A stretch of DNA of 63,628 bases, the filler included. It is 11 parts of 11 records of this genome, joined end to end, with 100 filler letters (N's around TTAATTAATTAA, not from the genome) between each part and the next. Parts side by side here need not be neighbours in the genome. Positions count along the whole stretch, not along the records: positions 30,345 to 38,936 come from SRR7504441_9587; 10 more parts are not named here. One strand, given 5' to 3'. The position numbers and the translations under genes were made by a program. This document shows, one piece after another, positions 2,964 to 60,824 of the stretch. How positions within the stretch are numbered: the stretch's first letter is position 1; each line of letters begins with the position of its first letter. The notes under the pieces were generated by a model that saw nothing but the letters and a program-made list of their open reading frames with translations, was not told the DNA's origin and did no database searches.

Positions 2964-3367
2964 GGACCAAATTAAATCGTATTTTCTCTTTCATCTTTCA
3001 GAAGACGTCACAGATGGCATCATGATGCCTCTGCCGGGTACCCTGCCCGAACCGCCCTTAGACCACCCTTTAGAATGACTTGCAATTACCCAGACCATTC
3101 TCAACTCACTGTAAGCCCTCATAGGGTGCAATACGACCGGTCATATGCATACAGACCTATCGTTGATTGATTGATGCGGTATTGTGTCGATTGTGTGTGT
3201 TAAATTGAACAATCTTGGAAGACGCGGATGGACGCGCAGGTCTCAAGAGGCAGGCAAGGCTGACAGGCCGAGCGTTTGAGGCTAGACAAATGTAAGCGAC
3301 GGCTTGGTTTGAGGTTTTTATGGGTGTAAAAGAGAAATGGTTAGTACATGACTTGAGCAGGCAACGT

Positions 3368-6844: not shown

Positions 6845-7326
6845 TTCTCGGTTGGCACACCGGCGGAGACGAAAAGCGAGAGCCTGAGACGCTCAGCAGA
6901 GAGGGTCCTGACCGCGTGTAGACCGCGTGAGGGGGCGAGGGTGCGGTGGTCGTGGGGCGCGGTCGTCGAGCTGGATACGGGCACAGTGGTGCAGATCAGC
7001 GGCCACACGCGCCAAGTGCCGTCCTAAACGTGCAAGGATCGGAGTACGATATCAATCACTTTTGGCAATTTGCACGAAGTACAAGTGTATGCACGAAGGG
7101 TGCAGTGCGAGAGTAAGCACATCCTGCAGGACCCGGCCCCAAACCAGAACAGCAATGGCTCCGTGAAGCGCAACAACCCAATATTTAAAGGCTAGGCCGC
7201 TTCAGGGTTCGGTGGACAACGCGTCAGCACTCAGTTCTTGGGATGAGAGTCCGTTGAGAGCTGGGCTCGCGACCGAGGAGGGCCACTCGCGAGCCGGACC
7301 GGGTGCTTAGTCTCGCGTCGTAAAGA

Positions 7327-12140: not shown

Positions 12141-12240
12141 NNNNNNNNNNNNNNNNNNNNNNNNNNNNNNNNNNNNNNNNNNNNTTAATTAATTAANNNN
12201 NNNNNNNNNNNNNNNNNNNNNNNNNNNNNNNNNNNNNNNN
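12141..12240. other. Artificial contig linker N44-TTAATTAATTAA-N44; also at 16580-16679, 26162-26261, 30245-30344, 38937-39036, 43472-43571, 48260-48359, 51650-51749, 54889-54988, 60494-60593
   Basis: Identical 100-nt blocks containing a six-frame stop cassette. Confidence 0.99.
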
Positions 12241-16476: not shown

Positions 16477-16679
16477 CGAGTCTGAAGTAACGGACGAATC
16501 AATGCCGAGGACAAGAGCGGGCAAGACGAACCAGCCGCAGCCCGCCGCCGAGGCCGCCGGGCCGGCCTTCCAGCGGCTGNNNNNNNNNNNNNNNNNNNNN
16601 NNNNNNNNNNNNNNNNNNNNNNNTTAATTAATTAANNNNNNNNNNNNNNNNNNNNNNNNNNNNNNNNNNNNNNNNNNNN

Positions 16680-19600: not shown

Positions 19601-21434
19601 ACGGGCCCAGTCGAGGATTGCAGAGCTCGAGTATCGTGTGATGCTGCTGCAGGATGCTGGCAAGATGATGGCTCTCAAGAGGATCATTGGCCGGTGGAAG
19701 AACCAGCAGCTGCATGCAGGCTGGCAAGTGTGGCGCGTGTTCATGGAGGAGATGAACGCAGAGAACCGCCTGGACAAGCTGCTCGCTAGCATGACTGCTG
19801 AGCAGAGGAAGCGCGCACTGGAGCGGCTGAACGCAATCATCTCGGCCTGGCTCGGCGACCACTTGAAGGCCAAGTGGTTCGACTGGAAGCGTGAGGTGCG
19901 CGATGGCAAGCAGCGTCGTAAGACGATGAGCTACTTCATCAAGCAGATGCAGAACCGCAAGCTGGCGATCGGATTCCACACCTGGCATGACTTTGCCCTG
20001 CTCTCTTCTGAGGAGCGTGCACTGTATGAGATTAACGAGCTGCGGTGGAAGCTCAAGTACACCTACATGCAGTGGATGCGTGAGAAGCTCCAGTACGAGA
20101 CTTCCAACTGGGCTAGGTACCAGACACAGCGGCTATTTGGCAACTGGAAGAACGTGACCCACGCTGTGTCGCGTGTTGTGACCAAGGTGCACCTGATCCT
20201 TGGTTCAATCCACCGAGTCAAGAAGCAGCAAGCCTTCAAGGACTTTGTGGCCGCCTGCATGAACTCCAAGATTCAGGGGTACGAGGCCCTTGAGGGCAAG
20301 CTCCGTGCTGATGCACACAAGAAGGCACTCGAGAAGATGTCGCGTGTGATCAACCATGCCCACCATATGGCCTCTGGAGCTGCGTTCCGGACATGGACCG
20401 ACTTCACCACGTTCATGGCGGATGAGAACGCCACATCGGAGCGTGACGCTGCCCTGAAGGCTGCTGAGGAGGCAGGGTACGGCCGCGCTCGCTCCCAGTA
20501 TGAGGGCGAGATCCTCGACCTGCGTGATGCGCTCAAGCAAGAGCGGGCGCTGTCGTTCTATGCCCACCTGGACAGCGTGCTGATGGCACGAGAGAAGCAG
20601 GGCAAGACCTACGGGTTCTCGACATGGCGTCAGTGGACCTATGGCCATGCCAGCCAGGAGGATGCTGAGCATGCTAAAGACCAGGTTTCCAAGCTCAGGG
20701 CCCAGCTGGGTGTCGCCGAGTCTTCGTCCAAGGAGTACCTGGCAAAGATGAGCCTCCTGGAGAAGGAGCTGCGCCAGATGAGGGATGAGAAGCACCTCTC
20801 GGAGGATGAATATTATAATCGTGTGCGCAACTTTGAGCGCGACCTGGAGCAACTGCGAAGGGAGAAGGAGAACCAGCTGGAGAAGCTGGTGCTAGATAAG
20901 AAGCACCTGGAAGCTTCGCTGGCACATGCGCGTGCTACCAACGAAGCCCAGGCCGAGGAGCACGCTGCTCAGTTATCACGGGAGAAGAAGGGCAGGGACC
21001 GTCTTCTGGCAGACAAGTCGGATGTTGATCAGGACAGGGATACGCTGATCAATTCCAAGACGCAGCTGCAGAAGAAGAATCGTGACTTAATCACTGAGTA
21101 CGAGAGCAAGCTGGGTGACATGGAGACTGCACTGGCCAAGTCCACCTCGGAGGCCAGCCTCGCAAAGCGCGAGAATGAGGTGGTGATGAGGACCCTGGAT
21201 CAGGTCCACGGGGAGCTCGCCGAGTCCCGCGCTAGTGTGCACACACTGGAGGACCGTCTGTCGGACCAGGGCATGGAGGTCGAGCGGTATGTAAGCGAGC
21301 AGAAGCGAGTCATGCAGAGACTCAAGTCTGCCGAGGACCAGCTAGCAATATACGAGGGACAGAATCCGAGAGGCAATGCCGAATTGGCTGCACTGCGTCG
21401 GGAAGCTCAGGAGGTGAATCAAGCCTTGAACTAG
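16680..21434 (+). CDS. Large coiled-coil cytoskeletal protein with a Q/A/H-rich segment and Sfi1-like W repeats; 5' partial; one GT-AG intron near 17212-17255
   Basis: Long heptad-rich frames; repeated F/W-x-x-W-K/R motifs between about 19560 and 20640. Confidence 0.8.
17740..18550 (+). repeat. Coding low-complexity Q/A/H repeats, including tandem PMPGMHPA and duplicated GCTGCCAATGCCCAGGCTGC
   Basis: Visible directly in both the DNA and the translation. Confidence 0.8.
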
Positions 21435-21767
21435 TACAAACCATGTAAGATTAGTGTAAGAGAAGAAATCAATTATCTAGGTAGAACTCTCAACTCCACT
21501 TGGTCGCTAGTATTATTAATAATGTGCTAGGGATCAACATACACAGACATACAAAGTATTCAACGACTTCAAATATGTTAATTATGTGGTGATCACGAGC
21601 TAGCTTGGCGAGGTTGTCCTGCCCTTGTCATGTTGTTGTCCTATCCATCGGAGAACCTGGATTATTCAGCTGTTAGAACTGAACGAACTGATGCCCTCAG
21701 TTGGCTTGTGTTGTGGCGGGAAAATCAGTCTCTTCGCTCGCTGAGCGGCCGTCGAAGAGATATCAGC

Positions 21768-22779
<1,012 letters not shown>

Positions 22780-26161: not shown

Positions 26162-26368
26162 NNNNNNNNNNNNNNNNNNNNNNNNNNNNNNNNNNNNNNN
26201 NNNNNTTAATTAATTAANNNNNNNNNNNNNNNNNNNNNNNNNNNNNNNNNNNNNNNNNNNNGAATGACCGTAAGAATTATAGTTCATTGTGATATACCCG
26301 TTGCAGTCGACGTGTTGGACGACCTGGTCTTCTGAGCAGAGCAGGAATAACGGCTTGGCAGGCGGACG

Positions 26369-27934
26369 ATGTTCGGGTGGACTGGGAGAGGCGTTGCAGC
26401 TGCGCTGGGGGTCTGTGTACAAATGCGCTGTGTGCTGCCCGCGCTGGGGGTGGACCTCGGGCCCAAGTACCACCTGACCGACGGCCGCACCATGCTCAGC
26501 GACCCGTCCGGCCCCGTGTGGCTCAACGGACACTGGGCGCTGTTTCCCGACGGCGCCCGCGCACAGAACGGCACCGTACCGGCCTTCTTCTGGAGCCGGG
26601 ACCTGGTCCACTGGGAGCGTCGGCTGACCGACATGCAGTTTGGCGAGACCGGCGGGGTGACGGTGCTCCCGGGCGGTCGGGCAGTCACCTTCGGCTCCGG
26701 AGGCCGGTGGAGTGCCACCCGGGGTGTTGCCCAACCGTTCGCGCACTGGACGGCGCTGCCGAAGGGCGGGGTCGATCCGCATACGGCCGGGAGGGCCGGG
26801 GAGCCGCCTGGGCCGCCGGACCAACGGGATTCTGGGCTGTTCAGAGTGGGGGACCCCTCAGCGCCGTTTGAATACAATGGCCGTTGGTATTTGGTGCTAG
26901 GCGGCGGCCGGAACAGCAGTGGGCCACCATACACACGGGGGGAGGCCAGACTGGTCCGGGCAACCAATGAATCGCTGGCTAGCTGGGAGTTTGTCTCAGT
27001 AATGTTCGCAAGCAATAGCACCGCTGGGCATTGGGCAGCACCCGTCAGTAACATGTTTGAGTGCCCCGACTTCTTCCGTCTGGGCGGCCGGTGGATGCTG
27101 CTCGCCTCCCAGATCTTCCAGGCCCCGCGCTGGCCGACCGGAGCGAACCATCATTGGGACCAATACCGGATAGGCAGCTTCGACGGCCAAACCTTCCTCC
27201 CGACCGATCGAGGTGTGCTCGATTACGGCTATGTGGCAGCCGGCAAGACTGGTGGCGGGCCGGGCGGCCGACGGGTCTTCTTTGGCTGGAATATGCCCTG
27301 GAGCCGGCAGAGGGCCAGTCAGCTCAGGTACCCAGTAGAAGAGCCGTTCTCTACACAAGTGCTCCCGCGAGACCTGAGCCTGGCCAAGGACGGCACACTG
27401 CGGATGGCGCCGGTGCCAGAGTTGGCCGCTCTCCGATCCCCAGACGGGCAGTTTCATGCCGAGGCCGTGACTGAGTCCCGGGGATGCGTGGCGCGTGGCC
27501 GACAGATCGAGCTGAATGTCACTGTGAGCGTGGGAACTGGCCCCGAGATGCCAGGACTGGCGATACTGAGCTCCGGAGACGGGCAGGAACGCACCTGGGT
27601 CGGCTGCAACCAGTCGCATTTGATCGTGAACCAGCTCAATTCGAGTCTTGCCCCGGACCAATCTGGTCAAGGCGCCTGGTGGTATTCAGCGTGGGTGAAC
27701 AACCATACGGTCCTTGCTGCGCCGCTACCGATCCAGGCACAGCACGTGATTCGAGTGTTCGTGGACGGGAGTAACCTGGAGGTATTTGCGGACGAGAGGG
27801 TGGCAATCAGCACCAACGTGTTCCCCACCTTGCAGTCGGCCGACTGCGTGGATTTGGAGCCGGCCACCGGTTCATTGGCCTCAGTGTCAATCTATCACCT
27901 AGTGGCCGCACCTGTGAGTGGGATTCCGCCCTAG
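26369..27934 (+). CDS. Glycoside hydrolase family 32 (beta-fructofuranosidase/levanase-like), apparently intronless
   Basis: PKYH...LSDPSG (NDPNG-type), SRDLVHWE, VGDP (RDP-type), MFECPDFF, LDYG, LPRDL; C-terminal RVFVDGSNLEVF beta-sandwich. Confidence 0.9.
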   Translation: MFGWTGRGVAAALGVCVQMRCVLPALGVDLGPKYHLTDGRTMLSDPSGPVWLNGHWALFPDGARAQNGTVPAFFWSRDLVHWERRLTDMQFGETGGVTVLPGGRAVTFGSGGRWSATRGVAQPFAHWTALPKGGVDPHTAGRAGEPPGPPDQRDSGLFRVGDPSAPFEYNGRWYLVLGGGRNSSGPPYTRGEARLVRATNESLASWEFVSVMFASNSTAGHWAAPVSNMFECPDFFRLGGRWMLLASQIFQAPRWPTGANHHWDQYRIGSFDGQTFLPTDRGVLDYGYVAAGKTGGGPGGRRVFFGWNMPWSRQRASQLRYPVEEPFSTQVLPRDLSLAKDGTLRMAPVPELAALRSPDGQFHAEAVTESRGCVARGRQIELNVTVSVGTGPEMPGLAILSSGDGQERTWVGCNQSHLIVNQLNSSLAPDQSGQGAWWYSAWVNNHTVLAAPLPIQAQHVIRVFVDGSNLEVFADERVAISTNVFPTLQSADCVDLEPATGSLASVSIYHLVAAPVSGIPP

Positions 27935-28210: not shown

Positions 28211-29294
28211 CTATAAGTACAACTGCTCCAGAGATTCAAACGGAAAGTCGGCCACTCCAGAGAACAGCTCCGAACGGGCCGAGGTGGCTAGCTCGCTCCA
28301 CTCTGACGAGTACTTCTCAAAGTCCAGCCCTGCCCCGAGCTCAACGGCCGGCCCTACGATGGGTGCACCGTTGGACCACTGGACGAGCATCGCGGCCTCG
28401 TCGGCTTCAAACTCGAGATCGGGGTCGTGCCAGTCCGGCATCTGGTCCGGCTCGGGCGACTCGGCCGCCGCAGTCTCCTGCTGCTTGCCCTCCGCATACA
28501 TCTTTTTGAGCCACTGTCGTTTCCGCATCTTGGCCCACTGTTGCTTGTTCCGCCGGCGTTTGGTCTTGTCGTGGTGGAAGGGGATTATTCGGCACGAGGT
28601 CTCCTGGGTGATTTGATCAAACATGGCCAGTGTGCGGTCCGCCACGGGCCTCCAACCGTTGTTCTCGATCCGCTCATACCTGCCGTCACGGTGTGCACAC
28701 TGTACTGCGGCTGCCCGCACCAGCCCGAGTGATCGTTGGACGGTCGTGGGCCCTTGTTGTTCTCCTCCTTGGCCCCTCGCTGCTTGTGCTCGGTGTAGTC
28801 CCGTGGGGCGAAAGCGTTGATGTCCACAAGAGGGTTATGCAGGAATATCTTATAAAAAATAGCCGGAGGGAACTGCCCCGACCGATCGGCCGCTGGCCAG
28901 CGCTACGGCCGACCTGGTCTCCACCCAGCCTGAACCGCACGTGCACGCCGGCCGCCGCGTCTACCAGCCCGGCCTCTGCGCCCCCCCGCTGATCTCAGCC
29001 GCAGGGGTCCCCGATGCCTGCCGGGTTGATACAGCGGAGCATCAGCCCAGGGTCGCCCCTCTCCCTGAACTTGATCAGGTCCCGGTAGTACCGGTATATC
29101 CGCTGGTCCTGCCCGAGCTCCAGCCCGGCCGGGGCATGGCCGCTCACCGAGAACCGCTGCCAGGCGCGGCCCAGTCGGTGGGCCGCGGTCTGACGGCGGT
29201 CCAAGTCCTCCAGCGCAAGGTCGGCCGGTCCGCTATCCGCCAGCACCGCCTCGAATGCCGCGTCCACCCGCGCCTCCACCGCCATGTCGGCCAT
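28211..29294 (-). CDS. MFI/C11orf65-like protein, 5 introns (28976-29017 is GC-AG)
   Basis: Spliced product: RAWQRFS...GDPGLMLRCINPAEAGLVDAAAGVHVRFRLGGDQFPPAIFYKIFLHNPLVDINAFAPRDY...WYERIENNGWRP...LDFEKYSSEW. Confidence 0.8.
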
Positions 29295-29385
29295 GAACCC
29301 GCTCAGCGGGTGGTTGGCGCCATCGCCGGAAATATCGCACAATCCCTCTCAGTCGGGCACCCCGGCCGCAGGCGCGTGTGGCGAG

Positions 29386-30207
29386 ATGGGGTGTGGAAGC
29401 AGTGCCCAACCGCCCAGTGACGGGGCTGATGCCGGCACAGCAGCTGAGCAGCACTGCCTCTGGCTTTGCGGCAATCCAGGGAGTGGCAAGACCTTCCTCG
29501 GGGACTACCTGGCCTCGCGAGGCTGGCAGCACATTGACGGTGACCAAGGCAACCAAGCCACAGACCCGGAGGTCAAGGAGCGGTGGGGCAAGCTCTGGGA
29601 GGCGATGAACACGGCGCAGCAAGGCAAGCCGGTGGATGAAGCGCTGTGGCGGCCGTATTATGAGCTCCTTGTACAGCAATACAAGCAGGCGATCCAGGCG
29701 GGTAAGAACGTGGTGCTCTCATTTGCGCTGTTGGACAAGTTTGGCGAGCGGTCGTATCTGGAATCCGAGATAGCTGGACTCAAGTTCGTGCTAGTTGAGG
29801 TGTCCAAGGAATTGTTATTAGAGCGTACGCTCGCGAGGAATAAGCTCACACTCGAGAAAGCAGGCACGACAGAGGAGGAGGTGTGGAAGCAGGACTATAT
29901 GGCAGCTTACAGAGAAAGGTGTGCCGCTTAGCTCCGGCCGGCCGAACGTGTGGCCAGGTATGGCGAGGAGTACACGCCGGAGAGATATCGTCAGATGGAG
30001 GTCGATGGAATGAATGAGCAGGAATTTGTGCACATTGACGCGAGTGACAATTCGATAGTGACTATCAATAACGATGATTGGGAAAATCTTAACTCGATCA
30101 AGGAGCTTAATCGGCTTGCGGGCCTAGAGTGGGAAGATGTGAATACTGTACAGATTGCAGATGTAAACATGAAGAGGATGGAGAACCTAAACACGAGTGG
30201 CGTGTGA
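29386..30207 (+). CDS. P-loop small-molecule kinase (gluconokinase/AAA_33-like) with MGCGSS acylation motif, 1 intron
   Basis: LWLCGNPGSGKTFLG...WQHIDGD. Confidence 0.75.
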
Positions 30208-30344
30208 ACTTTTGACTGATGATCAAGCATGTTGTGAATGATTTNNNNNNNNNNNNNNNNNNNNNNNNNNNNNNNNNNNNNNNNNNNNTTAATTAATTAA
30301 NNNNNNNNNNNNNNNNNNNNNNNNNNNNNNNNNNNNNNNNNNNN

Positions 30345-33300
30345 CAAAGTGGGTGATGATCCAGGCTATCTTCACCAACAAGAGGGTGCGCGATCTGGGC
30401 CGTGAAGCTGACTGGTTGCCCAGGAGACTGTGCACGACTGGCCGCTCACGTTCGAGAACACAATGCCGTCAAATCTTGAGTGGAGCGCTCGCGACAGGTG
30501 CTTCTACGGCACTGGCTTCTACATGGGCAAGGAGCGGATACTCAAGATAGCCCCGACCGTAGAGTCGCTCGAAGTGACTCTGGCCAGCGAGCGCGAGCGC
30601 GACTCCATAATCGAGTATCTCGAGGAATTGACTACGTAAGCGTGTCTTGTCTCGCCCAACTGACTGTGGGGCGCAGCCATAACATGACGACACAGCGGGG
30701 CTGCAATCCGACGAAGTGGGAGACCTGCGCGGGGCTGCAATACAGGGACGAGAAGACCGGCCGCCTCAAGGAAATAGCGCAGCCTTCCGAGGGTACATTC
30801 ATGTACTCGGCCGCGTACGGGGGTGAAAAGCAAGAGATTGTCTGGTCAAGCCACCGACTGGAAGGTGGGTGCAGAGCGCTGGCCGGCCGACTGAGTGGTG
30901 CCGCAGCCATGTATGAGCAGGACAAGAGCCAGTTCGGGTTCCAGCCAGCGTTTCGGCTCAAGAACTGGCAAGTGTTGCGGAACCGAATCGTTGACGATTT
31001 CCCGCTCCCGGTTTGGACACCGATGATAGAGTCAGCTCCGATGCTGCCCACCGTGATCCCAGGAGCGCAGAGGGCCTATGAGGACAGGACGCATACTGTA
31101 AGCCGGCCATAAGCTTGCAGCCTCCTGAGCAGGGGCTTACATAGGTGTATGGGATACAATTCTACAGCGCCGGGCTCGATGATGACGGGATGCCCATCAA
31201 CTACACTGCCAGCATCAGATGCTCGAGCGGCATGCTCACTCTGGCGGGCACGAAGACTTATAAGTGAGTCATGCCAATGCGGTGCCAGTGCTGAGCGTGC
31301 CTCAGGCACTTTGTGAAGCCAGACGGCACGGTAGGGACGATCCCTGGGTATCGGTGGCCTTCGGGCGTGACGGTCTTGGACGGCGGCAAGGGGTTCAACG
31401 AGACGAGCATCCGGATCGCTGGGCCAGCTTCGAGCTTGGTGATAGCACTTCAGCAGTTCACCTACCTCGGTCAGCCAGATTTTAATGGGAACGACGTGAT
31501 TGAATTCAGTTACTACTCTGATGTGGAGGCTGCAAGGGCTGACTTCGAACCTACAGTGAACGAGATACCTATCAAGGTGGCAGCAGTCAACGACAGGCCG
31601 ACCATCACACAGAACTGGGGCTGGGAGGAGAAACTGGAGGGCTACGGCACCATTCTCAAGGAGGCCACCACTATCACGATGCAGGTGGCCGCGAACGATT
31701 TGGAGATCTCACGTGGCGAGAGCGAAGACACCACGGTGGAGATGTATGTGACGATTCTGAAAGGCGACGCGGGGGGCCGGATTCAGTTCACTGAATTGGA
31801 GAATGTGAACGATCTCAAGAACGCTGCTGTGGACATTAAGACTGGAAAAGTCTTCAACTCAGTGAGACTCGGGCTCTATGCCCCGCTGGCTGATGTGAAC
31901 CGGATTTTGGGCGATATGGTGTACACGGCGCCTAAAGATCCTTCGACTATCAAGGATCAGATTCGGATAGAAGTGAATGACCTGGGCAACTACGGGGAGG
32001 AGCATGAGCCGCTCAGGGCCATCCGGAACTTGGAGGTGATGATCAACTGTTACCTTGCCAGTCCACCACAGCTCCAGTCAGCGCAGTTTGACAATTCGGC
32101 TGCCAGGATCTTGATCACGTTTGACCGGGTGACAGACAAGACTATCTCGCTCTTCACTGCTGAGGAGGATCGGCTCTTGGGTATGGACTCGTGTTCAAAG
32201 ATTCTGAGAGAGGGCGCGCCGTCTGTTGCTGAGCTGGTCGAGACACAGAATTGGCTGGGGCTTGACTCAGTCTGTGCATTCCTGGACGAGCGCACGCTCT
32301 CTGCCCAGTGCGGGCCAGGCGCTACAATCTTACCATGGCAAACCATTAGGATTGTTCCCGAACTGCTTCGATCTTGCGAGAACAGTCCACACGGTGCTTT
32401 CGGCGTGGTGACTGTCCGGCCGCCAGAGATCCCCCCAGTCCCCTCAGTGGAGCTGATTGGGGCTAACAAGCTCGGAGTATGCGAAGCTGTCGTCCTGGAT
32501 GCCTCCATGAGCACAGGTGGTGGTGGCCGGCCACTTAAGTACCACTGGCGCCTGCTTGCAGTGGTCAAGGGCAATGCAGTCGAAAAGCTGCAGAAGAACA
32601 AACGGATTGGCAAGTTTTCAAACCTCAATCTTATTAATGCGAGTGCCCTAGCCAACCAACTGTCAGCTTCGGGTAAGCTTGACTTGATCACCATTGATGG
32701 GAATCTGGCCACCTCGCCGCTTCCAGCAGGTAACACCTACATCTTCCAAGTGGGTGTTATGAACTACATGAACATCAGCTCTTGCTACTATGACGAGGAG
32801 CTGATCGAGGAGAAGTGCAAGTCGCAAGGCGTGCTGATGACGTATAAGTCACATAAGAAGCTCCCAACGCTGTTTATCGACGGGAAATCTCAACGGCAGG
32901 TAGTGAAATCCAAAGACCTGATTCTGCAAGCCTCTGCGTTTCCGTCATCGTGCGGTCAACCAGGGACCATGCGTTTCACTTGGAGCTACTACGAAGCCCC
33001 AGTTGATAGACCAGACCTGGATGAGAAGACACGCACTACGCGCAACCTCAAGATTGCGAAGGACAGCCTCAGGGTTGGGCAGCGTTACACTCTCAAATTG
33101 ACTGGGCGGATGGAGAACGATCCGCCAGATATGGAGGTCGACGCCTTTGTCACGCTGGAGGTGATTCCAGGCACCCTTGTGGCAAAGATTGCCGGAGGAA
33201 ATCGCGCACTCCCCACAATTGCGCCAATTGTGCTCGATGGCTCTTACTCTCTGGATCCAGACAACAGCCCTGTCGAGTTCGTTTACACCTGGACCTGTGT

Positions 33301-36300
33301 GATCGCGCCTGATATGCTTCCATGCAAAAACAAGGTAGAAGAGCCGGTTGTGATTCCCTCAAAGCCGATCTACACAGTCCCGCCTCGCCAGTTCTGGATC
33401 GGTACTGAGCTAGTGATTACTTTGAATGTGGAGAAGCCGGGTAGTACGGTCAAGCCTGACTCGACAACTGTGGTCATCGAAATCATCCCTGCTGGTCCAC
33501 CCAAAGTGGCTATCCAACCATTGACAGTGAAAAAATCGAATTCAAACGAACGAATTGTACTCAGGGGTGGCATTGAGGAGGACTATAGATCTCCTGCCTA
33601 CGAGTGGTCGGTGCTTGCGATGGACCAGATCATATTTGATCTCGCGTCACCAATGCCAGGAGACCCGGATTCATTCAGAGACACATCGACTGGACCATAC
33701 ACGCGTAACATGGTGATCCGGCCATCGAAGCTGTCACCCGGCGTGAAATACACCTTCCAACTTTCAGCAGAGGACGACACAGGCGGCCCTGGCCGTGGAA
33801 CTATCGATGTCTTGATGAACAGTCCGCCAGGAGGCGGCACATTCGAGGTCTTTCCGAAAGAAGGTTTTGGCTGCGATACCAGATTTGAATTCCGAGCTAA
33901 GAATTGGGTGGACGACCCAGATGACTACCCACTGCAGTTCTACTTTGGATTTGTCAAGGCCCAGATGAACACGGGCAAACCTGAAGAGACCGCCCTATGC
34001 GCCAACCTGAACAAGGGCTCCTATGGGGCCTTCTTGCCTGCTGGCGACGGAGACAACGAGATCCTAATTGTCAAAGGCAATGTCATGGATAAGTATCAAG
34101 GGACTGCGACTTTTCAGAAGCGGATCACAGTCAAGCGCCATACAAAGAACATCGGGGAACTGGTACTTCGGAAGGTCGAAGAAGTAGTCGGGCCAGCGCT
34201 AAAGCAGGGAGACGCTGATGCAGTCGGCCAAATTGCAGATTGCTCATCGGATCTGCTCAATGCAATCCAAGAGGTGGATGATGACGACGACGAGGAGGAG
34301 CCTTCATTAGACTCCCCGCAGATGGTCCTGGAGAAAAGAGAGAAGGCCGAGGAGGCAAGGCTTCTAAAGATTCAGGAGAACATGGCCGCTCGTGATGCAT
34401 TGCTGAGGAGCCTTGCTGAGATGGCTGCCACAATTACAATGAATAAGGCCGCCATCGACCGTATGAGTAAGACAAGCGGCAGGATCCTAGCAGGAAATCC
34501 CGAGGAACTGTCTGAGTATGCCAAGGAACTGGCATCCAAAGAGATGGAAAAGACCATCGCATCTACTGCAGATGAAGGCTTGGGTCCCGACACTGGGCAG
34601 GCTGCAGGAACTGCACTTGGGGGTACTATGTCCGCTGTTGTGATTGAGAAGGCGGGCAATGGCACAAACACGACCGACGCTGACGAGATCGAGGCTCCCA
34701 GATACAATGTAGGTGTAGGGAAAATGTGTCACTTCAACTATCTCGCGTTGGGTCCTCTTGACGTTGAACAATGTGAATATGAATGCGATAATACCCTGGG
34801 ATGCACTGAATACTCTATTTCATGGAACGAGGAGGAGGCAGAGCATCAGTATGGTTGTCGCATTGCAAAGGACAGCCAGGGTTGCTGTGATAGAGTCCAG
34901 GGTGTTAACGTGGCTGATTTCTGCTCAGTAGCCGCAAACAGCTATCACTGCGTGTTTAACGGAACCAACGGGTGCAAGCTCTACGTCAAGTCGACAGCCA
35001 GGAGGAGTGGCGAGCTTCCCGGAGGAGGACGCCGATTTGCACACCGTCGGTTTCTCCTTGGAGTGCCGGGTTCGGCAATCAAGCCCAAGCCTGCATTGAC
35101 CGAAGAGCAGCGCGTTCAGAAAGAGCTATCTGCAAGCATCCATACCAGCACGGATGACTTGGGATCCAGTGCAAATGCAGGGGCTGTGTCTGGCGAAGCC
35201 CCAGCCCCTATCATGAGTGATGCGATCAAAGTGAATACTAAGAAGATCTATCCTGAGGATGTGGCGGCCAAACCATACGGGCCACCTATTAAGTGCCACT
35301 TTAAATGTCCTAAAGATAAGAAGTGTGATGCTCGTGGCTGTGAATATGGACCTTTATTCTACCTTCCGGCAAACATTCTCGATTATGCAGCTCCTGGATC
35401 CGAGCTGAGCTCGCAAAGCAACGGCTGGGGTGCTAACCCATTTGCCTGGGATGAAGGTGTGCTTGTGTGAGTGCGCAGACTGATTGTATGCTGGTCACAG
35501 GGAGTGCTGGTATGAGTGGCGATGTTTCTGGCTTCTCGCTCGGAATAACTGTGTCAGGGCTTCCACAGCCCATCTTGATTAAAATGCCGCTGAAGGGAGA
35601 TGACCCATCCGAGGCAAGCTGCGCATTTTGGGACAAGACAAATGAAGAATGGTCCACTCGCGGATGTGTGATTGGACAAGTAGTGCAGCCATATGTGTAT
35701 TGCTATTGCACTCACTTGACAGACTTTGGAGCAGTTGCCAAGATGGAGATGCCTGCAATGGACCTGAACAATCCCTTCGACGTTGGAAATTTGGAGCTTG
35801 AGTTCTCGCTTGGTTCACTATTGGCAATCATTGTGATAGTGACTATCTACACGTGCTACATCATGGGATGCTATTACGGGTACATGCGGGACGAAAAGAT
35901 GCGCACTGCCACGGCAATGGTAACAGGCAAGCTCATAATGAAGTCAGACGGGACGTATGAGTGGGAGACTGAGGACGATGTAATTGATCGGAAGAATTGG
36001 GAAGAAGAAGATGCGAGAAAGAAACGAGAAGAGAAAGTTGAAGAGCAAGCCAATCGAGTAGAGGCTTTAAAGAACGACATCTTTGATTCTAACACTATTC
36101 TAAATGCCAAGGCAGATCAGGCAGCCGACTGGGCCGCAATGGACGATTATGAATCCTCGTCAGGCGATGAGGTTGATGCTCACGGAAATAAGATCGAGAG
36201 CTTGAAATCCAAAAAGAAAAAGAAGCTCACAGCAATCGATCGCAAGAAGGCTGAGCTCGAGGAGTTAAAGCAAAAGATTGAGGTGGAGGCAGATAAAGAC

Positions 36301-38095
36301 AACAAGAAGGAGTTGCTTAAGAAGTTTGAGCAGGAAGACCGATCGCTGATGCTGATGATGCTTGAGAAGAAGATAGAGCGGCGGGTGTGTTGGATCTGCC
36401 TTCACGAAGCCCCTGTGAGCAAGATGGTTGCTGCGTGTGGATGCCAGGGTGCACTCGAATTTTGCCATCTCTCCTGCTTGATGCAGTATCAACGGGACTG
36501 CGCTGGGGCTGAATGGGGCGAGATGTGCATCATGTGCGGCCAGCGATACGAGCCTGTGGTGCCTCGATGGGTCCAGCTGCTCCAAGTGGAGATGCTAGAG
36601 GAACAGAACAAGCCACTCGAGATGGACGAGGAGGACCAGGAGGCCGAAAGGAAGTACAAGGAACTGCTCGATCGTGAGCTCCTGGACCTCGTCGACAAAA
36701 AGCTCTACATGTGCTTCATCTGCCTTGGTCAAGACGATTTCACTAAGCTGCTGACACCGTGCAAGTGCACTGGACTGCTCAAGTATGCTCACCAGGAATG
36801 CTTGGAGAAGTGGATGGCCAGGAACGATCAAGCCGGAGAGCAGGAGGGGAACGAGCAGGTACGGGAGTGGGGCTCTAGGTGCAACCAGTGCGGGCATGCT
36901 TACGAGCTCAAGCCAACCACAGGGCCATTGATGCTTAAGATAAAAGACAAGTGAGTGGGCTGCATACTAGTGCGCTCACATGCTGGCACAGGCTATTTGG
37001 CACCGATGCAAAGACCCGAGGCCTGGAGGTTGGCTATGAGTTTGAGGGTACCAAACTGCCACTTTTTGACAAGTGGAAGAACTTGGTCTGGAGTAATTTT
37101 GCGGTGATGCACCCTGTCCTCAACATTGCTATGATGCCACCTCAAAGCCCATACACGCGTCCAATGCGATGCACAGTGTTGCTGTGCACAATTCTTGGAG
37201 GTCTCTCTTGCCTGTGACACGAGAGTTGTGACCGTGTGCCGGTGCAGGTATGGTCGCTGGTGCAATCGTCTATGGCAAAGTGTGTCTCCCTCAGCCTGCA
37301 GGCCTCTGACAGAATTTGTGGCACAGGCGCCACCCACAGACATCCCCGGTAAAATCGTGACGGCAGTGATCCAAGCGGCGGTGATGGTTATCACTCCGTT
37401 GATCATTCGAGGCTTGTTTATCGCCGGCGCCGGAGCTCCAGCTCCTCCCAAGAAGCCGGGCCCTCCACGGCCGTCGATGGAGCGAGAGACAGCATATGCT
37501 CGGCAGCTCCGAATGGCGCATGAGGCTCGGATGGCCACGATGAACCCCATTCAGAAGAAGCTCTACCTGATCAAAAATCCGTCCGCCGCGCCGCCTGCTG
37601 ACCCAACTCCTCCCCCAGGCCGGCCAATCCCTGTGAGTATAAGCTCCCTGGCACGTTGAGCGGTTGGGCCAGATCCTCATCTACATTGCGTACGCGGCAT
37701 CCACCTGCTTCCATGTGATGTGCGCAGGCATGATCATAATGTACGCCTTGATGTTCGACCCCGACGTATCTACTGAGTGGTTGCTCATGGCTGTCTTCAC
37801 CACACTCAACGACTGGCTCGTTGCCAAACCTTTTGCCTTCCTCCAGGTGAGCGGCTTGCTTGCAGTTGCCTTTGAGATTAAACGTGGATGGCAGGCCGCA
37901 ACAATCGGGTTCTTCATGTTTGAGTTTTCAGCCGAAATAGTCGAGGGGATTGAAAGGGCCTTCGATTGGGTAAAGGGATTCTTAGCTGACAAGTGCGGCA
38001 TTGATTTACGATGGTTGGATATTAAGACTACCGCGCCGCCCCCTTCCGCAGTTGCTCTCTTGAATGAGGACAAAGATAAAAAGGAGGACGTCTAG
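30345..38095 (+). CDS. Polycystin-1-like receptor: cadherin-like segment, REJ, PAN-like, GPS/GAIN, TM1, two RING-CH fingers, TM2-5; 5' partial; multi-exon
   Basis: VAAVNDRPTI; LDGSYSLDPD, MNSPPGGGTFEVFPKEG, WVDDPDDYPLQFYF (REJ); CAFWDKTNEEWSTRGC...CYCTHLTDF (GPS); two C4HC3 fingers; SPYTRPMRCTV motif then four hydrophobic helices. Confidence 0.85.
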
Positions 38096-38320
38096 AGGAG
38101 GAGGACGACAACTATTGATCACACGCAGACGTACGAGTACAAACGTACTGAAAACTAACTGAAAACGATAATTTATACTAAAAAATCAAATTGTTTCAAC
38201 CGCGATACTATTATAGGTCCAATGCCGCGAGTGGAGAGTCTTAGGAGAGTTTTATGACAAATATGATGTATAATCATGATTGTACACAAACGGCAGCTTT
38301 CGATTGTACTTTCGCTAGTC

Positions 38321-38936
38321 TCACACGCGCCACTTAAGCGTTCTTGCGAGAAGTTGTTGAACAAGCCCATCCGGAAGCGCACAGAGCTTCTGCATCCGAG
38401 CAGTCTGCGGCGTGGCCCTTTTTTGCGCCTCCATCGTCAGCATCAGCTGCCACGCCCGCCTGCACTCCCTAGTGGCGTTATCGCTCAGCCGCCAGGCAAC
38501 GTCCGGATTCGGCTGCTGATCGGCGCTCATTCCCCCGACCACCACCACGTGCCCGGCCAGCGCCAGCACCTCAAAGCATAAGCGGGGCGACGGCCCAAGC
38601 TCAAGCAGCTCCCAGGCCAAGCTGGCCAGATCGAGACGCCAGAACGGGTCAGCGGCCACCGCCTCACCGTCGATCGAGCCGCCAGCCACAACTATCCCGC
38701 CGGCCACCGCCACAGTCCTGCAATTGAATCTGCCGCTCGGGCCAGCCTCTAGCGCAGTCCAGCTGCAGCTCGGTATGTCCAGCAGCCAACTCACATCCGT
38801 ACATGGAGTGGAGGCATCGGGATGGGCCATGTCGCGCGACTGCTCGCCTCCGAAGAGCAGCATCTGGCAGCCAGTCACAACAGTCGAGCAGCCATACCGC
38901 GGCGAGGGCCCGCCCGGGAGCGGCTCCCACTTGCCG
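38321..38936 (-). CDS. Kelch-repeat protein, 5' partial
   Basis: LLFGG...W, PSGR...VVAGG...W, PSPR...VVVGG repeats. Confidence 0.75.
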
Positions 38937-39150
38937 NNNNNNNNNNNNNNNNNNNNNNNNNNNNNNNNNNNNNNNNNNNNTTAATTAATTAANNNNNNNN
39001 NNNNNNNNNNNNNNNNNNNNNNNNNNNNNNNNNNNNAGCCGCAGCAGTCTATTGGTGTACAGCCGCGCTCGGCAATCGATTGCTGGTGGCCGAGCACCGT
39101 GCCGTTACGCAAGATAACGGAAACCGACCGCCAGGGAACAAGAGAACACC

Positions 39151-40580
39151 ATGCCGGCTGAAATTGCACTTGTCGTGGGCGGCGGGATCGGGGGGCTCTC
39201 GGCGGCGCTGGCGCTGCACAAGGCGGGCCTGGAGGTGCACGTGTTCGAGAGGGCGCCGGAGCTGGCCGAGATCGGGGCCGGGATCAACATGCTGCCGGCC
39301 GGGGCTGCGGTGCTCGACATGCTCGGGATGAGCCAACGGCTGCAGAGCGACCAGGGCGCCGACGCCGTGCTCACCTCGGAGCTGCGGTACTACGGTACCA
39401 AGGGCACGCTCATCCTAAAGGAGCCGCGCGGCCGGTTCGCTGGGTTCCGGAGCCCGCAATATTCTATCAGCCGGGCCACGATGCACACCCAGCTGCTGCT
39501 AGCAGTCCAGGAACGGCTGGGGCCGGGCAGGGTGCACCTGGACCACAGCTTTGAGCGGTTCGCTCAGGACGATGCCAGCGTCACTGCGTGGTTCACGAGC
39601 AGCGACGGGGTCACCCGGAGCTACAGCGGCAACATCCTGATCGGCGCCGACGGCCTGCGCTCTAACGTTCGGCGGCAAGTCTACCCAAACGAGGAGGCCC
39701 GGTTCACCGGGTGGCGGATCTACCGGGGGGTGGTCGAGTTGGACGCTAGGCTGCTCAACGGAAGCACGATGCTCACCACAGGGTCCGGCAAGTGCGCGTG
39801 GGTGTTTTACCCCATCTCCGCCACCAAGGCCAAGCAGGGCAAGATCCGGCTGAACTGGGGCGCCAACTGCAACGACGCGGTGCTGCCGGAGCATATCAGG
39901 GGCCGGCCCGGGCCAGAGGCTTGGAACCGGCCTGCAACCAAGGCGGAGTTTGCCCCATTGGTGAAAGACTGGCAGTTCGCGCCTGGGGTGTGGTCCGATC
40001 CGAGCATCAGCTACAGCACGATCATAGCCGCTACCCCCGCTGACCAGATCACCTGCTACTGCCTTTTTGACCGGAACCCTGTGGAGCAGTGCGCTAGCAC
40101 AGCGCGCTGTGGCTTAGCCGGGTTACAGGTGGACGTTTGGACGAGTGACACTGCTAGGCGACGCGGCGCACCCGCTGCTGCCGTTCGGATCACAAGGCGG
40201 TGGCCAGGCCATGTTGGACGTGCAGGTAAGACGCGGGCGCCGGCCAACCATTAGAGCGGGGCTGCAGGCGCTTTATGATGCATTCAGCAGCTCAAAAGAC
40301 GGCCCGGCTGCGCTTCTCGCGTATGAGAAGGCCCGTGTGGCTACCGCAGCACAGGCCCGAAGCCGCCGGGCTGGGGGCTGACACGGTGAGGCAGGTGGTC
40401 CTCAAGAACCGGCAGATGGGCCCGACTAAGCTGCTGGCCATGCTCGAGGATGCCTGTGGGCACAAGAGCAAGCAGGAGCAAGAGGCGTGGGTGGCGGAGA
40501 AATCGAGCGAACTCGAGAAGTTCAGCACAAACTACCAGACCATGACCGGCAACAAGAAGATGCTGCAGGCCAAGCTGTAG
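39151..40580 (+). CDS. FAD-dependent monooxygenase (salicylate hydroxylase/UbiH-like), 3 introns (40355-40394 is GC-AG)
   Basis: VVGGGIGGL, LIGADGLRSNVR, GRVTLLGDAAHPLLPFGSQGGGQAMLD. Confidence 0.92.
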
Positions 40581-43221: not shown

Positions 43222-43821
43222 GGTCGCCGAGGGTGGTTCCGGTCAGAGTGTCCCAGAAAGCAACGGACTTGACTTCAGTCAGCCACTGGCAGCCCGATGC
43301 GGGCGGCTGCAGTGCCCTCGATCACTCGAGCCAAGAGTACGCCCCGTTACCAACGAACGGTTGCCTTTGAAACACGTAGGATGCAGGGGTCTCCTTGCCC
43401 TTGGTATCCCAGCACAGGAGCTGGTCAAATGCGGAGGCTCCGTCGAAAATCGCTCTCATGTTGGTATTTTCNNNNNNNNNNNNNNNNNNNNNNNNNNNNN
43501 NNNNNNNNNNNNNNNTTAATTAATTAANNNNNNNNNNNNNNNNNNNNNNNNNNNNNNNNNNNNNNNNNNNNAATCCCCGCTTGGCGCCGTACGGACCAGG
43601 GGTTCGCATCCGGTGCGCCTCGCCCCGCTGAATCGGAGACCACTGACGGTGCCCCCCCACACCACGCCGTGCCGGGGACGCCCAACCTGGCGCGAAGGCC
43701 ATCACTCAATCTGGACTCGCTGCTCTATTTTTAATCTCTATTTTGAGAACTTAAACCTGTCGAGGAGCCGTTGGCAACTGCCTGGATCGTGTGATGGGGC
43801 CGAACATTGAGTCAGGCTGAT

Positions 43822-46760
43822 ATGAGCCGCGACGAGCCGGGAGACGAGCGGGCAGCCAGCCCAGCAGACGAGCCCGAGCCTGAGATGGCCGAACAGGGCA
43901 ACCCGCTCAACGGCTCCGCGGCTGGCGCCCCGGCCGAGAAGCTGGACGGTGCGGGCCACAGTCTCGCGGGGGCTGAGCTGCGGGCAGAGGACCTGGAGCA
44001 GGCGGGCGGACTGCTGCCAACGGGCGGCTCGACCGAGTTCGGGCACCTGGTGATCGAGGAGGTGCAGGAGGCTAGGCTGCACGACAGGCCGTGCAAGCGG
44101 ATCGGGCAGCAGCTGCTGTACGGGGCGCGGATGGCCGGGGCAGGCACCCTGGCCTTCGGACTGACCAACTGGGACGAGTTCAAGGACGAGATGATGCCGG
44201 CCGTCGCCTTCCTGGCCTGCGTGACCGCCGTCCTGTGCGCGGCCCCAACCCTGGGCGGCACACTCAGCCTCTCGGTCCAAGCAGCCATCGGGTCGCTGGC
44301 AGCGGCGCTGATCTCCTGGCCGATCGTGCAGGCGTTCAAGGGCCAGCGGGTGGCCTCCGCCTGCGGGCTTGCAGTCATCTCGTTCTTCTTTGGGGTTCTG
44401 GTTGCCGGGCCGGCCGTGCGCAATCTGGGGCTCGCGCTGATCAGCGTGATTGTCATCCTGTTCGCGATGGACGACAAGCTGGACGACGCACTCCCGTTCA
44501 AGATAATGCTCACGTGCATCACTGGGATCCTGTGCTCCGTGATCGCGTCGTTGCTCCCGATCCCAACCTGGGGATCGACCAGGCTAGAGAGGCTGGTCTC
44601 TCGAAGCCTGCGACACGTTGACTTGCTGATCGAACTGGTGCGAGCCTCCGGTCTGCCGCTGGTCACTGAGGGCCGCAGGCGTTCATTAAGGTGTTTGACC
44701 CACAGTTTAACGGCTATGACGAGCTGGTGGAGCTCGATGTCGAGTATGTGTTCAGCAAAGGTGCCCGCGTGGTCGGGTGCGATCCGAGTGAATCGGGTGG
44801 GCCAGCCTCGCAGGACTGGAGCGAAGCCACGAAACTGGTGTCCGCCGCCAGCTGGGAGACTCCGTGGATCGACCACTCGAGTACACTAGAGCTGCTCCAG
44901 TCTCTTCTGGCGCTTGTGACTAGCCTGAACAAGATAACTAAGCACTCGCTCCAACACAGAACCGAGCTCACCTCCGAGGTGCCTGGCAGACCACTGCGTG
45001 CAGCTGAGTGGATAGCCAGGTCGCGAATCTGATTGCTCAACGGGGCATGCAGCTGCAGCGGCAGGTGTCATACTGTCTGCTGCTGATTGCAGATTACTAC
45101 TGTCTCGAGGAGGACCTGCCGTACAAAGTCTACGGGATGCACTGCGGCCACAGCTGGATGGACCGCGAGAGTCAAACCTTCGGAGCGGAGGATGCAGAGA
45201 AATCGCCTTGGTTTGAAGGGAGGCACCAGAGTAAGGAATCCACCCAACAAGCTGAAAAGCAGAGCAAGGACGATCTTGAATCGCTTGTGAAAGCCCTGCA
45301 TGTTAGCTACGCAGACGCGAGGCAGCACCTGGTGGCTGCTGCCCTGGTGAAAGTGCGCTGATTTTATGTGTATCCTGTAGTTCTATGATGGTGCTTTTGA
45401 CAGCTCGATGATTCATGATTGCGATGAGGTACTTGAGTGTGCTTTTTTGGGCTAGTGATGGCGCGGCAGATTCTCGAAATCAACGCCATGTACGCCACCG
45501 TGCTTAAGATCACAGAAAAACTAGAAAAGCATGCCATATACGTCGACGAGGACTTTCAGGCCCGCGCAATGCGTACTGTCAAAGGCCTCTGGTCCAGCCT
45601 TGGGATCAGCGTTGTCTTTGACATCCCATCTCTAAAGTTTGCGTTCAAGGTCCAGCAGCAGCGGTGCGCCGGTTCTCATCTTGATGATGCAGGTATGTCT
45701 GGCAATGACGCTGGCCGCGTGTTGTGGCCTGATTGATGCCCTCAAGCAAACCTTCGACACAAAAGCATTTTGGACTGCGCTCACAGTTGCGTTTGTGATT
45801 TCTCCCATGGAAGGCTCTAGCCTGAAGCAGGGGTTGCTGCGCATGATGGGTACAGTGATGGGGGCCATCTTTGGGTACTTCATTCTCAAACTAACAGATA
45901 ACACCGACTGGATCATGGCCATCCTTTTGTTTTTGTGGAGTATACTTGGCGGGTGGATGCGAAGCGACCCCGAAGTGGGCTATGCAGGGATGGTCTCTAG
46001 CTTCACTGCCTTTATCATTGTGGTGGACAGCGAGGGGAGCAGCGATTATGGTTCGATTACGTTAGCTCGGATCGAGATGACCTGTTATGGGGTGGTAATC
46101 TGGGTACTGATCTGCCTTGCTGTATTTCCGGCCCGCGCGTCGCTGCAGCTGCTGGACGAATATAAAGGGTCACTGGACGCTGCTACAAATTGGCTGGAGC
46201 ACCTGATGCTGGTAGCTGCAGATATGCATCGCCATACTGTCGAGGCGGAGGTCAAGAAATGGAGTGAAGAATTTGATAAGAGGTGCGCAAAGGAGCTCAT
46301 GCTGCTTCCGCATGCCACAGCTGAGCCGAAGCTATGGTATCGTGTCTTTGCTGCAAAGGCACACACGGAGGTGGTGAATCAGATCCTTGAGATCGGCCGG
46401 TCGCTAAATTCACTAAATGTGTCAATGTTACAAGGGGAATACGTCAAGGCACTGAGAGCTGACCTATTGCCACTGCACAAGCAGCTGATCTATTCGATGC
46501 CTTCACTGGCTGTGATGCTGAACGAAGATGCAATCTTTCCAGACATTCAGATTCCAGCTCTGAAGAGTGCACTTCAGAGTTTCCACACCGCTGTATATGG
46601 CGCGATCCGACATAGGGTCGAAACCGGTCACAGAACAGCAAATCAAGATCTGCTCGACCTGTGCATCATAGTCACTGTGCTACGTCATATGGTACAAAGT
46701 ATCGAGAGCTGTCATAGGGCCGCTGAGACCATTCTATTGCAAGAGTCTCACGGGCTCTGA
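43822..46760 (+). CDS. FUSC/ArAE/ALMT-superfamily membrane protein, multi-exon
   Basis: Two hydrophobic bundles; PTLGGTL, FWTALTVAFV, GSSLKQGLLRMMGTVMGA, YAGMVSSFTA, ARIEMTCYG...FPARA, AEPKLW. Confidence 0.85.
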
Positions 46761-48258: not shown

Positions 48259-48359
48259 CNNNNNNNNNNNNNNNNNNNNNNNNNNNNNNNNNNNNNNNNN
48301 NNNTTAATTAATTAANNNNNNNNNNNNNNNNNNNNNNNNNNNNNNNNNNNNNNNNNNNN

Positions 48360-51649: not shown

Positions 51650-51809
51650 NNNNNNNNNNNNNNNNNNNNNNNNNNNNNNNNNNNNNNNNNNNNTTAATTA
51701 ATTAANNNNNNNNNNNNNNNNNNNNNNNNNNNNNNNNNNNNNNNNNNNNCCCCCCCCCCCCCCCCCCCCCCCCCCCATTAGGGTCTGGCGGTGATGACGG
51801 GCCGCCCAG

Positions 51810-54758: not shown

Positions 54759-54988
54759 GGCTTTCCGAATCCCACCCCCCAAGCCTCTGCAGAGGGATCG
54801 GTTTCTAAAGACTTTGAGTCCTCTAGATCTAGATCTATGCGTACTCGTACATTACCTACCTGGTAAGGACAAAGATATTGGCCTCAATNNNNNNNNNNNN
54901 NNNNNNNNNNNNNNNNNNNNNNNNNNNNNNNNTTAATTAATTAANNNNNNNNNNNNNNNNNNNNNNNNNNNNNNNNNNNNNNNNNNNN

Positions 54989-60422: not shown

Positions 60423-60824
60423 GACTTCTTGAAGTCGAGACTTGTATGAAGAGAGTATAATCAGTTTTAATGCGAAATATGCCCGAGCCTAATNNNNNNN
60501 NNNNNNNNNNNNNNNNNNNNNNNNNNNNNNNNNNNNNTTAATTAATTAANNNNNNNNNNNNNNNNNNNNNNNNNNNNNNNNNNNNNNNNNNNNTTGGCAT
60601 ACAAGGCACCTCTGGCTTGGAATCTGATGCTCATACTCTCCATACCCGTCTTCCAAATCGAATTTTTTTTGCGAGCGGCGGTTAAAAGTCGTGAAAAAAA
60701 TTAAAGTGCTCAACTGCATTGGGCACCGCATGATTGCCAACGCGGGGGAGGCGGACCCGCTCGTGCTCTCCTAGTGGCCGTCGCCGCGCTTGGATCCCAC
60801 AGCTCAGCAATTGCAACGTAACTC

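Follow-up and report, generated by a model that had tools for sequence, protein, structure and literature searches.

The DNA analysed here (hereafter the window, meaning the whole stretch of 63,628 nt) consists of 11 concatenated contigs of a draft or binned assembly, joined by linkers, and synteny across the gaps is therefore meaningless. One contig piece, SRR7504441_9587, carries a spliced, plus-strand gene for a large membrane protein that combines REJ, GPS and membrane segments of the polycystin-1 type with two RING-CH zinc fingers in its first cytosolic loop (Table 1). The 5′ end of the gene is lost at the contig edge, and its reading frame terminates in a TAG stop codon. Its stop-to-stop frames comprise 1391 amino acids (aa) at 31295-35470 and 499 aa at 35455-36954, with three shorter ones reaching as far as 38095. 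After splicing, the coding sequence from 31295 to 38095 amounts to 6534 nt and holds no stop before the final TAG.

Contigs from four marine metatranscriptome runs were aligned over 35300-38200. All six introns of this region (40-48 nt) were found as GT..AG joints in contigs from three studies, and most contig pieces were >=99% identical to the window gene. The frame 37643-38095 holds a stop-free intron of 48 nt that is spliced out in the RNA contigs, and a reading from DNA alone would therefore add 16 false residues inside TM5, the last of the transmembrane (TM) segments. The contigs differ from the window at single bases (37966, 38021, 38023 and 38033), with run X1 diverging after 38073; these 3′-end differences are probably strain variants. 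The RNA contigs show splicing and expression, not one end-to-end molecule. The gene is real, belongs to a marine eukaryote and is transcribed in the sea, as seen from matching contigs in metatranscriptomes of several studies.

A relative provides an independent view of the same gene. The EukProt entry P0001, translated from a Trinity transcript, covers 100% of the exon-2 protein at 57% identity, and P0154, a longer isoform of the same transcript (2456 aa), runs colinear to window positions 30439-38029 in the same domain order. By tblastn, aa 218-277 of P0154 aligned at 30439-30633, aa 255-393 at 30600-31100 and aa 393 onward from 31145. As residue 218 of P0154 corresponds to position 30439, the contig edge has cost the window gene about 217 residues at its N-terminus, and the ectodomain is incomplete because the linker at 30245-30344 cuts the 5′ end of the gene. 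Frame 31295-35456 alone, with the upstream pieces excluded, still provides an ectodomain of at least 1387 aa. In P0154 the N-terminus is hydrophobic and resembles a signal peptide (first ~21 residues, read by eye).

Table 1. Positions of the receptor gene, its parts and other loci in the window
Feature	Position	Strand	Basis
Contig piece with entire receptor feature	30345..38936	.	bounded by N44-TTAATTAATTAA-N44 linkers
Upstream ectodomain coding pieces, three frames, exon borders approximate	30439..31250	+	tblastn of orthologue P0154
Large ectodomain exon; donor at 35457 confirmed, 5′ border approximate	31295..35456	+	frames, RNA joint, P0154 alignment
REJ domain	32948..34234	+	Pfam PF02010, E 1.2e-51; 176 bits vs cut-off 25
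Cys-rich insert	34724..34993	+	no Pfam match
Intron, 44 nt, GT..AG	35457..35500	+	RNA contig joint, run X1
Single exon: GPS, TM1, charged helical stretch, both RING-CH fingers	35501..36950	+	open frame, RNA joints
GPS motif C..W...W..GC...C.C.HL/T.F	35620..35727	+	Pfam GPS, E 3.1e-10
TM1	35809..35877	+	hydropathy peak 2.28; aligned to PKD1 TM1 via profile A1
Cytosolic charged stretch, 170 aa	35878..36387	+	47% K/R/E/D; predicted helical
RING-CH finger 1 (C4HC3), CWIC...CIMC	36388..36537	+	Pfam RINGv; K3 match; ligand spacing
RING-CH finger 2 (C4HC3), CFIC...CNQC	36712..36891	+	Pfam RINGv; c-MIR/MARCH8 and Doa10 matches; ligand spacing
Intron, 41 nt, GT..AG	36951..36991	+	RNA joint, run X4; P0154 colinear
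Exon: pre-TM2 segment, SPYTRPMR (37146-37169), TM2 start	36992..37200	+	RNA joints, hydropathy
Intron, 47 nt, GT..AG	37201..37247	+	RNA joint, X1
32-nt exon: TM2 end	37248..37279	+	RNA joints, hydropathy
Intron, 47 nt, GT..AG	37280..37326	+	RNA joint, X1
Exon: TM3 (37354-37428), 68-aa Pro/Arg-rich cytosolic loop	37327..37632	+	RNA joints, hydropathy
Intron, 40 nt, GT..AG	37633..37672	+	RNA joint, X3
Exon: TM4 (37673-37756), TM5 start	37673..37846	+	RNA joints, hydropathy
Intron, 48 nt, in frame, GT..AG	37847..37894	+	RNA joints, X1 and X3
Last exon: TM5 end, 55-aa cytosolic tail, stop codon 38093-38095	37895..38095	+	RNA joints, hydropathy
EFTUD2/Snu114-type GTPase	7324-10260	+	Pfam
Papain-family C1 peptidase	21582-22523	+	Pfam
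GH32 hydrolase	26351-27931	+	Pfam
P-loop kinase-like protein	29194-29928	+	Pfam
Kelch-repeat protein, cut by contig end	38321-38935	-	Pfam
FAD monooxygenase	39118-40251	+	Pfam
ALMT/FUSC-type transporter	45636-46757	+	Pfam
EF-hand protein	55480-56172	-	Pfam

Ectodomain and membrane domain

We ran Pfam on the raw reading frames of 30480-38095, and REJ, GPS and RINGv (two stretches) all scored above their cut-offs. The REJ domain spans aa 552-980 of frame 31295-35470. The GPS reads C-AFW-...-W-..GC-...-C-Y-C-T-H-L/T-D-F, with CYCTHLTDF at 35701-35727 and a predicted cleavage between Leu (35716-35718) and Thr (35719-35721); TM1 starts 27 residues beyond this motif. To judge from these signatures, the large ectodomain joins a REJ domain to a GAIN-type domain that closes with an intact HL/T GPS site.

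The other ectodomain parts found no Pfam match at E up to 10, namely the first 302 aa of the big exon, the Cys-rich insert (searched as 34694-35023) and the 407 aa that precede the GPS exon. A preliminary description of this locus, made from the letters of the sequence, had called parts of the ectodomain "cadherin-like" and "PAN-like" (the latter being the Cys-rich insert), and these two labels gained no support from Pfam. The stretch that it called a charged coiled coil is the segment of 170 aa predicted to be helical. The following points of it were borne out: the REJ domain, the intact GPS, two C4HC3 RING-CH fingers, GPS, TM1 and both fingers in one open frame, a PKD1-type SPYTRPMR motif, four more TM helices after TM1 and the absence of a channel domain. 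No PKD repeat rose above the Pfam cut-off in the window gene, whose 5′ end is missing (PKD_4, 15.2 bits vs 27), and P0001 gave a sub-threshold K319L-like_PKD match (21.1 bits vs a cut-off of 27). A stretch of ~120 residues in the pre-GPS (GAIN-like) region, at 34675-35039, within which the Cys-rich insert falls, is without counterpart in P0001 and P0154.

Hydropathy peaks define TM1 and four further TM segments, and arginine or lysine borders TM1, TM2 and TM3 on their cytosolic sides. To compare this region with known structures we used a profile of 21 family sequences, window exon 3 included (profile A1). It matched human polycystin-1 (chain 6a70_B, E 6.7e-16) in a single alignment that runs from TM1 through "...HIWLSIWDRPPRSRFTRIQRAT..." (TM2) and TM3 to TM4-TM5, with the PLAT domain of the TM1-TM2 loop and the long TM3-TM4 loop of PKD1 left as insertions. 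The SPYTRPMR motif is truly PKD1-type, because in this alignment it falls on the FTRIQR of polycystin-1. Single sequences reached less far: P0002 alone did not reach PKD1 among PDB sequences, and P0009 alone reached it through PLAT only, its FTRPQR alignment being below significance.

The fold of the region was examined on the relative P0002, to which the window protein aligns in two blocks (3.7e-33 and 8e-65, the second being the window tail). An AlphaFold2 (AF2) model of P0002 from the GPS to the C-terminus (859 aa, 28-row alignment) had a mean predicted local distance difference test score (pLDDT) of 67.8, with TM helices at about 90, and fold searches used this model, not that of window exon 2. 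It matched PKD1 ~3066-3622 with Z 15.6-18.1 in 8/8 PKD1 entries listed, over 187-210 residues at a root mean square deviation of 3.2-4.8 Å. These Z scores exceed both the tool's chance-helical level and every unrelated row.

No PLAT was found in any frame of 30480-38095 (Pfam, E up to 0.1) or in P0001-P0003 (E up to 1). Likewise, neither PKD_channel (TM6-TM11) nor 7tm_2 (the secretin-like 7TM domain) had a Pfam match in the window frames or in P0001-P0003. The reading frame stops 55 residues past TM5, and the orthologue P0154 ends at the same place.

The two RING-CH fingers and their relatives

Between TM1 and TM2 the window protein has an insertion of 409 residues, made up of a Lys/Glu-rich helical stretch, with 27 Lys in its 170 aa, and the two fingers, which are separated by an acidic linker of 58 residues. 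RINGv matched in two stretches of frame 35455-36954 (Pfam E 3.5e-14). Both fingers follow the pattern C-x2-C-x12-C-x-C-x7-H-x2-C-x16/26-C-x2-C, with 16/16 zinc ligands in place. The RING-CH consensus is C-x2-C-x(10-45)-C-x-C-x7-H-x2-C-x(11-25)-C-x2-C, and the x26 spacing of finger 2 lies one residue above its upper bound. Against solved structures, finger 2 matched c-MIR/MARCH8 (2d8s, E 2.9e-7) and Doa10 (2m6m, E 4.7e-6), and finger 1 matched K3 of Kaposi's sarcoma-associated herpesvirus (KSHV; 1vyx, E 6.5e-5) with all eight ligands. The model of P0002 matched RING-CH domains with Z 5.6-6.3 and a Foldseek TM-score of 0.74 to K3. The canonical features C-x-I/V-C, CL/F..W and C..C are all present in finger 2, which ends 71 residues before the TM2 motif. 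Given the RINGv matches and the matches to solved RING-CH structures, the fingers are RING-CH and not PHD. They are cytosolic rather than lumenal, because one TM segment lies between them and the REJ/GPS ectodomain and the orthologue P0154 has a signal-peptide-like start.

Relatives with the same arrangement are few. P0002, run by HMMER against 1.84 billion cluster representatives, had 1113 matches at E<=1e-3, four of them at <=1e-30, and 154 stored relative proteins were classed by local phmmer. Five of the 154 carried GPS, both fingers, TM1, TM2-3 and TM4-5 (the isoforms P0001 and P0154, together with the metagenome-derived P0002, P0003 and P0004, which have the same domain order as the window). 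P0005 is a fragment of the RING-bearing kind. P0008, also a fragment, at first matched finger 2, and corrected finger windows place it in the TM2-3 group only. In total, the RING-bearing kind numbers seven stored proteins in two clades. The family as a whole has a first clade with the window, P0154, P0008 (83%) and P0044 (59%) and a second with P0002 to P0007, and identity between the clades is 27-32%. All eight zinc ligands and the x12/x1/x7/x2 spacing are kept by finger 1 in 5/5 sequences that cover it (window, P0154, P0002, P0003, P0004) and by finger 2 in 6/6 (the same five and the fragment P0005). The GPS pattern C-W-W-GC-C-C-HLT-F was found by regular expression in 4/5 RING-bearing sequences, and the fifth, P0004, has a GPS by Pfam.

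Of the remaining stored proteins, 13/154 are short RING-only proteins and the others GPS proteins without fingers. TM2-3 was matched in 51/154, 14 of which also matched TM4-5. Two further word-index searches yielded a single additional fragment (P0155) and no other full-length protein of the RING-bearing kind, which is weak evidence. A protein atlas search with the exon-2 protein gave no usable match. None of the RING-bearing proteins came from NCBI or UniRef, and none has a descriptive name. A full-text literature search gave, among the matches listed, no paper that pairs RING-CH or RINGv with REJ or polycystin, again weak evidence. As a combination of known parts, REJ-GPS-5TM with RING-CH is rare and apparently undescribed.

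The RING-less protist REJ-GPS-5TM proteins (unnamed, e.g. P0009, P0015 and P0050) share the GPS-TM1 and FTRPQR-TM2-TM3 core with the window protein but differ in their loops. Roughly 45-80 residues separate their TM1 from the FTRPQR-TM2 block, and PLAT (3/30) or IQ (4/30) lies after TM3; RING-CH fingers are confined to the small clade of the window protein and its RING-bearing relatives. These counts come from a Pfam scan of 30 of the 150 listed matches, in which GPS was found in 23, RINGv in 2, PLAT in 3, IQ in 4, 7tm_2 in 3, a kinase in 1 and a sub-threshold TRAF finger in 1. The PLAT domain of each of the three PLAT-bearing relatives (P0009, P0050 and P0066) follows the FTRPQR-TM2-TM3 block, whereas that of human PKD1 is placed between TM1 and FTRxQR/TM2. 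The PKD1 superfamily therefore has no fixed site for PLAT, and since PLAT lies after TM3 in these three protist proteins, the RING pair is better seen as an insertion in a short TM1-TM2 loop than as a one-for-one swap. The preliminary description had the fingers standing "in place of PLAT", which holds against the TM1-TM2 loop of human PKD1 and fails for the three protist relatives. Protist REJ-GPS receptors seem to exchange cytosolic modules freely (PLAT, IQ, kinase, RING-CH). Eight GPS relatives (P0010, P0013, P0015, P0019, P0020, P0033, P0040 and P0078) display such variety, with IQ, a sub-threshold TRAF-type zinc finger, leucine-rich repeats plus a protein kinase alongside two GPS stretches, and 7tm_2 receptors in which GPS occurs in 2-5 stretches.

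The polycystin-1 family (PKD1, PKD1L1-3, PKDREJ, sea urchin REJ) shares with the window protein the REJ domain, the GAIN/GPS with HL/T, TM1, the pre-TM2 H...P..FTRxQR motif, the TM1-TM5 bundle and an effector domain in the TM1-TM2 loop. Unlike that family, the window protein lacks PLAT and the TM6-TM11 channel-like domain, its 5′-truncated gene gave no PKD repeat above cut-off, and its loop instead carries two RING-CH fingers behind a charged helical segment. MARCH ligases have their RING-CH next to a TM hairpin. With these and other RING-CH ligases (MARCH8/c-MIR, KSHV K3/K5, Doa10/MARCH6) the protein has in common C4HC3 fingers of the family spacing, significant structure matches and a cytosolic finger shortly before a TM hairpin (finger 2 is ~70 residues before TM2-TM3). 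The MARCH ligases, however, have the finger at the N-terminus of a small 2-TM or a 14-TM protein, whereas here tandem fingers sit in an internal loop of a giant receptor between TM segments of the PKD1 type. G protein-coupled receptors of the adhesion class (aGPCRs) resemble the window protein in GAIN subdomain B and GPS (best E 3.5e-13 with A1; Z 9.6-13.2 on the model of the relative P0002, on which alone the GAIN fold was seen), and past the cleavage site the window stalk starts T-D-F-G-A-V. They differ in their 7tm_2 domain, which the window protein lacks, its membrane domain being PKD1-type with five helices. Finally, RNF43/ZNRF3 and the GRAIL-type PA-TM-RING proteins also unite in a single chain a domain that binds ligand outside the cell and a RING in the cytosol, but they are single-pass, of RING-H2 type and have no GAIN/GPS or REJ.

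A possible ubiquitin output of the receptor

With gene structure, expression, domain identity and order, topology and conservation in hand, we suggest that the gene probably, though by no means certainly, encodes a channel-less receptor of the polycystin-1 (REJ-GAIN/GPS) superfamily whose loop fingers drive ubiquitination, endocytic sorting and turnover. In this scheme the receptor would be cleaved at the GPS (HL/T) and reside in the surface or endosomal membrane, and the fingers would recruit a ubiquitin-charged E2 (ubiquitin-conjugating enzyme) and ubiquitinate lysines of their own loop or of neighbouring membrane proteins. Ubiquitination would in turn set endocytic sorting and turnover, so that the loop would do by ubiquitin what the PLAT of polycystin-1 does by arrestin binding. 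A preprint describes a beta-arrestin interaction of polycystin-1 PLAT and activity-dependent removal of polycystin-1 from cilia (bioRxiv 10.1101/2025.05.21.655326). Since PLAT mediates such beta-arrestin- and activity-dependent removal, a trafficking or turnover role of the loop is a reasonable analogy.

Several points count against this interpretation. The GPS cleavage and ligase activity are predictions from sequence, and a tie of the ligase to ligand binding or force would be conjectural. The TM-domain fold was compared on the model of the relative P0002 and not on the window protein, and the AF2 model of window exon 2 (8 sequences) is weak, with a mean pLDDT of 59.7 and a predicted template modelling score (pTM) of 0.30. 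Because the 5′ end of the window gene is missing, its signal peptide is taken over from P0154. Finger 1 has a Tyr at the position of the usual RING-CH helix Trp (CLMQY vs CLEKW in finger 2). On the RNA side, the contigs are short (151-433 nt) and none spans GPS to fingers, 35650-35924 and 36374-36630 are without contig cover in the four runs, and the joint between the finger exon and the TM2 exon has a short side of just 27 nt.

The two holes that the short RNA contigs leave inside the exon, and the origin of the stretch as 11 linker-joined contigs, could point to an artefact, be it a chimeric assembly, contig concatenation or two genes read as one. We regard this as extremely improbable. The whole feature lies within one contig piece, GPS, TM1 and both fingers share one uninterrupted exon and so are not parts of separate transcripts, and the same order recurs in the independent Trinity transcript of the relative and in the metagenome-derived P0002, P0003 and P0004.

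The Tyr of finger 1, which is also present in the P0002 clade, raises a different alternative. The helix Trp of RING-CH domains has a role in E2 binding, and finger 1 could be weaker or non-catalytic because Tyr replaces it. Were both fingers non-catalytic, they would act as zinc-stabilised docking or scaffold modules and the receptor would signal or traffic in some other way. Tandem RING-CH fingers are moreover unusual among MARCH-type ligases, and a catalytic role is a prediction from sequence. Nevertheless, finger 2 is canonical and matches the active ligases c-MIR/MARCH8 and Doa10, and no zinc ligand of either finger is lost between clades of ~30% identity, so that we consider purely structural fingers unlikely.

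It is more doubtful still that the ligase acts constitutively on the biogenesis of its own protein, in endoplasmic reticulum or Golgi quality control or turnover as in Doa10/MARCH6, independently of the ectodomain and perhaps without ever being a surface receptor. Finger 2 does match Doa10 nearly as well as MARCH8, the Lys-rich loop is an obvious substrate in cis and the surface location is a prediction. However, REJ and GAIN/GPS ectodomains are typical of surface receptors (the PKD1 and aGPCR families), and the orthologue P0154 has its signal-peptide-like N-terminus. This alternative shares the E3 (ubiquitin ligase) step with the turnover receptor proposed above and differs from it in place and gating only.

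In a stronger form of the proposal, which we offer tentatively and think somewhat unlikely, the surface receptor undergoes GAIN autoproteolysis and its built-in tandem RING-CH ligase is governed by its state of activation. Loss or pulling of the N-terminal fragment, with engagement of the stalk by the PKD1-type five-helix bundle, would switch the ligase, and an adhesive or mechanical event would lead to ubiquitination of the receptor and its membrane neighbours without G protein, channel or arrestin. Such direct coupling of adhesion or mechanical sensing to ubiquitination, which the preliminary description had proposed, is conceivable from the identities of the domains. If gating of this kind is real, the protein would be a natural sensor of the polycystin/adhesion-GPCR type wired straight to the ubiquitin system, and the polycystin TM1-TM2 loop would be a plug-in site for output modules.

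The receptor also bears on polycystin-1 itself. To our knowledge, the membrane-proximal part of polycystin-1 (GAIN, stalk, TM1-TM5 and PLAT loop) occurs in animals only as a fusion with a channel-like domain and in a pair with PKD2, and its stand-alone role is debated for that reason. The window protein presents a PKD1-type module without the channel domain and with a biochemically simple candidate output, a RING-CH ligase, in the loop that holds PLAT in human. If the fingers are active, ubiquitination would be a tractable read-out of GPS cleavage and of stalk action on TM1-TM5, and would support the first cytosolic loop as a trafficking and turnover module.

Other loci in the window

The eight other loci identified by Pfam are ordinary eukaryotic genes (Table 1), and a frame of 1446 aa at 17094-21431 had no match in Pfam. 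Each of the ten gaps is a joining linker with stops in six frames, composed of 44 N, TTAATTAATTAA and 44 N. The linkers lie at 12141-12240, 16580-16679, 26162-26261, 30245-30344, 38937-39036, 43472-43571, 48260-48359, 51650-51749, 54889-54988 and 60494-60593. The pieces vary in GC content from 0.51 to 0.69 (2-kb bins), and a run of ~27 C at 51750-51776 lies at a contig end, immediately after a joining linker.

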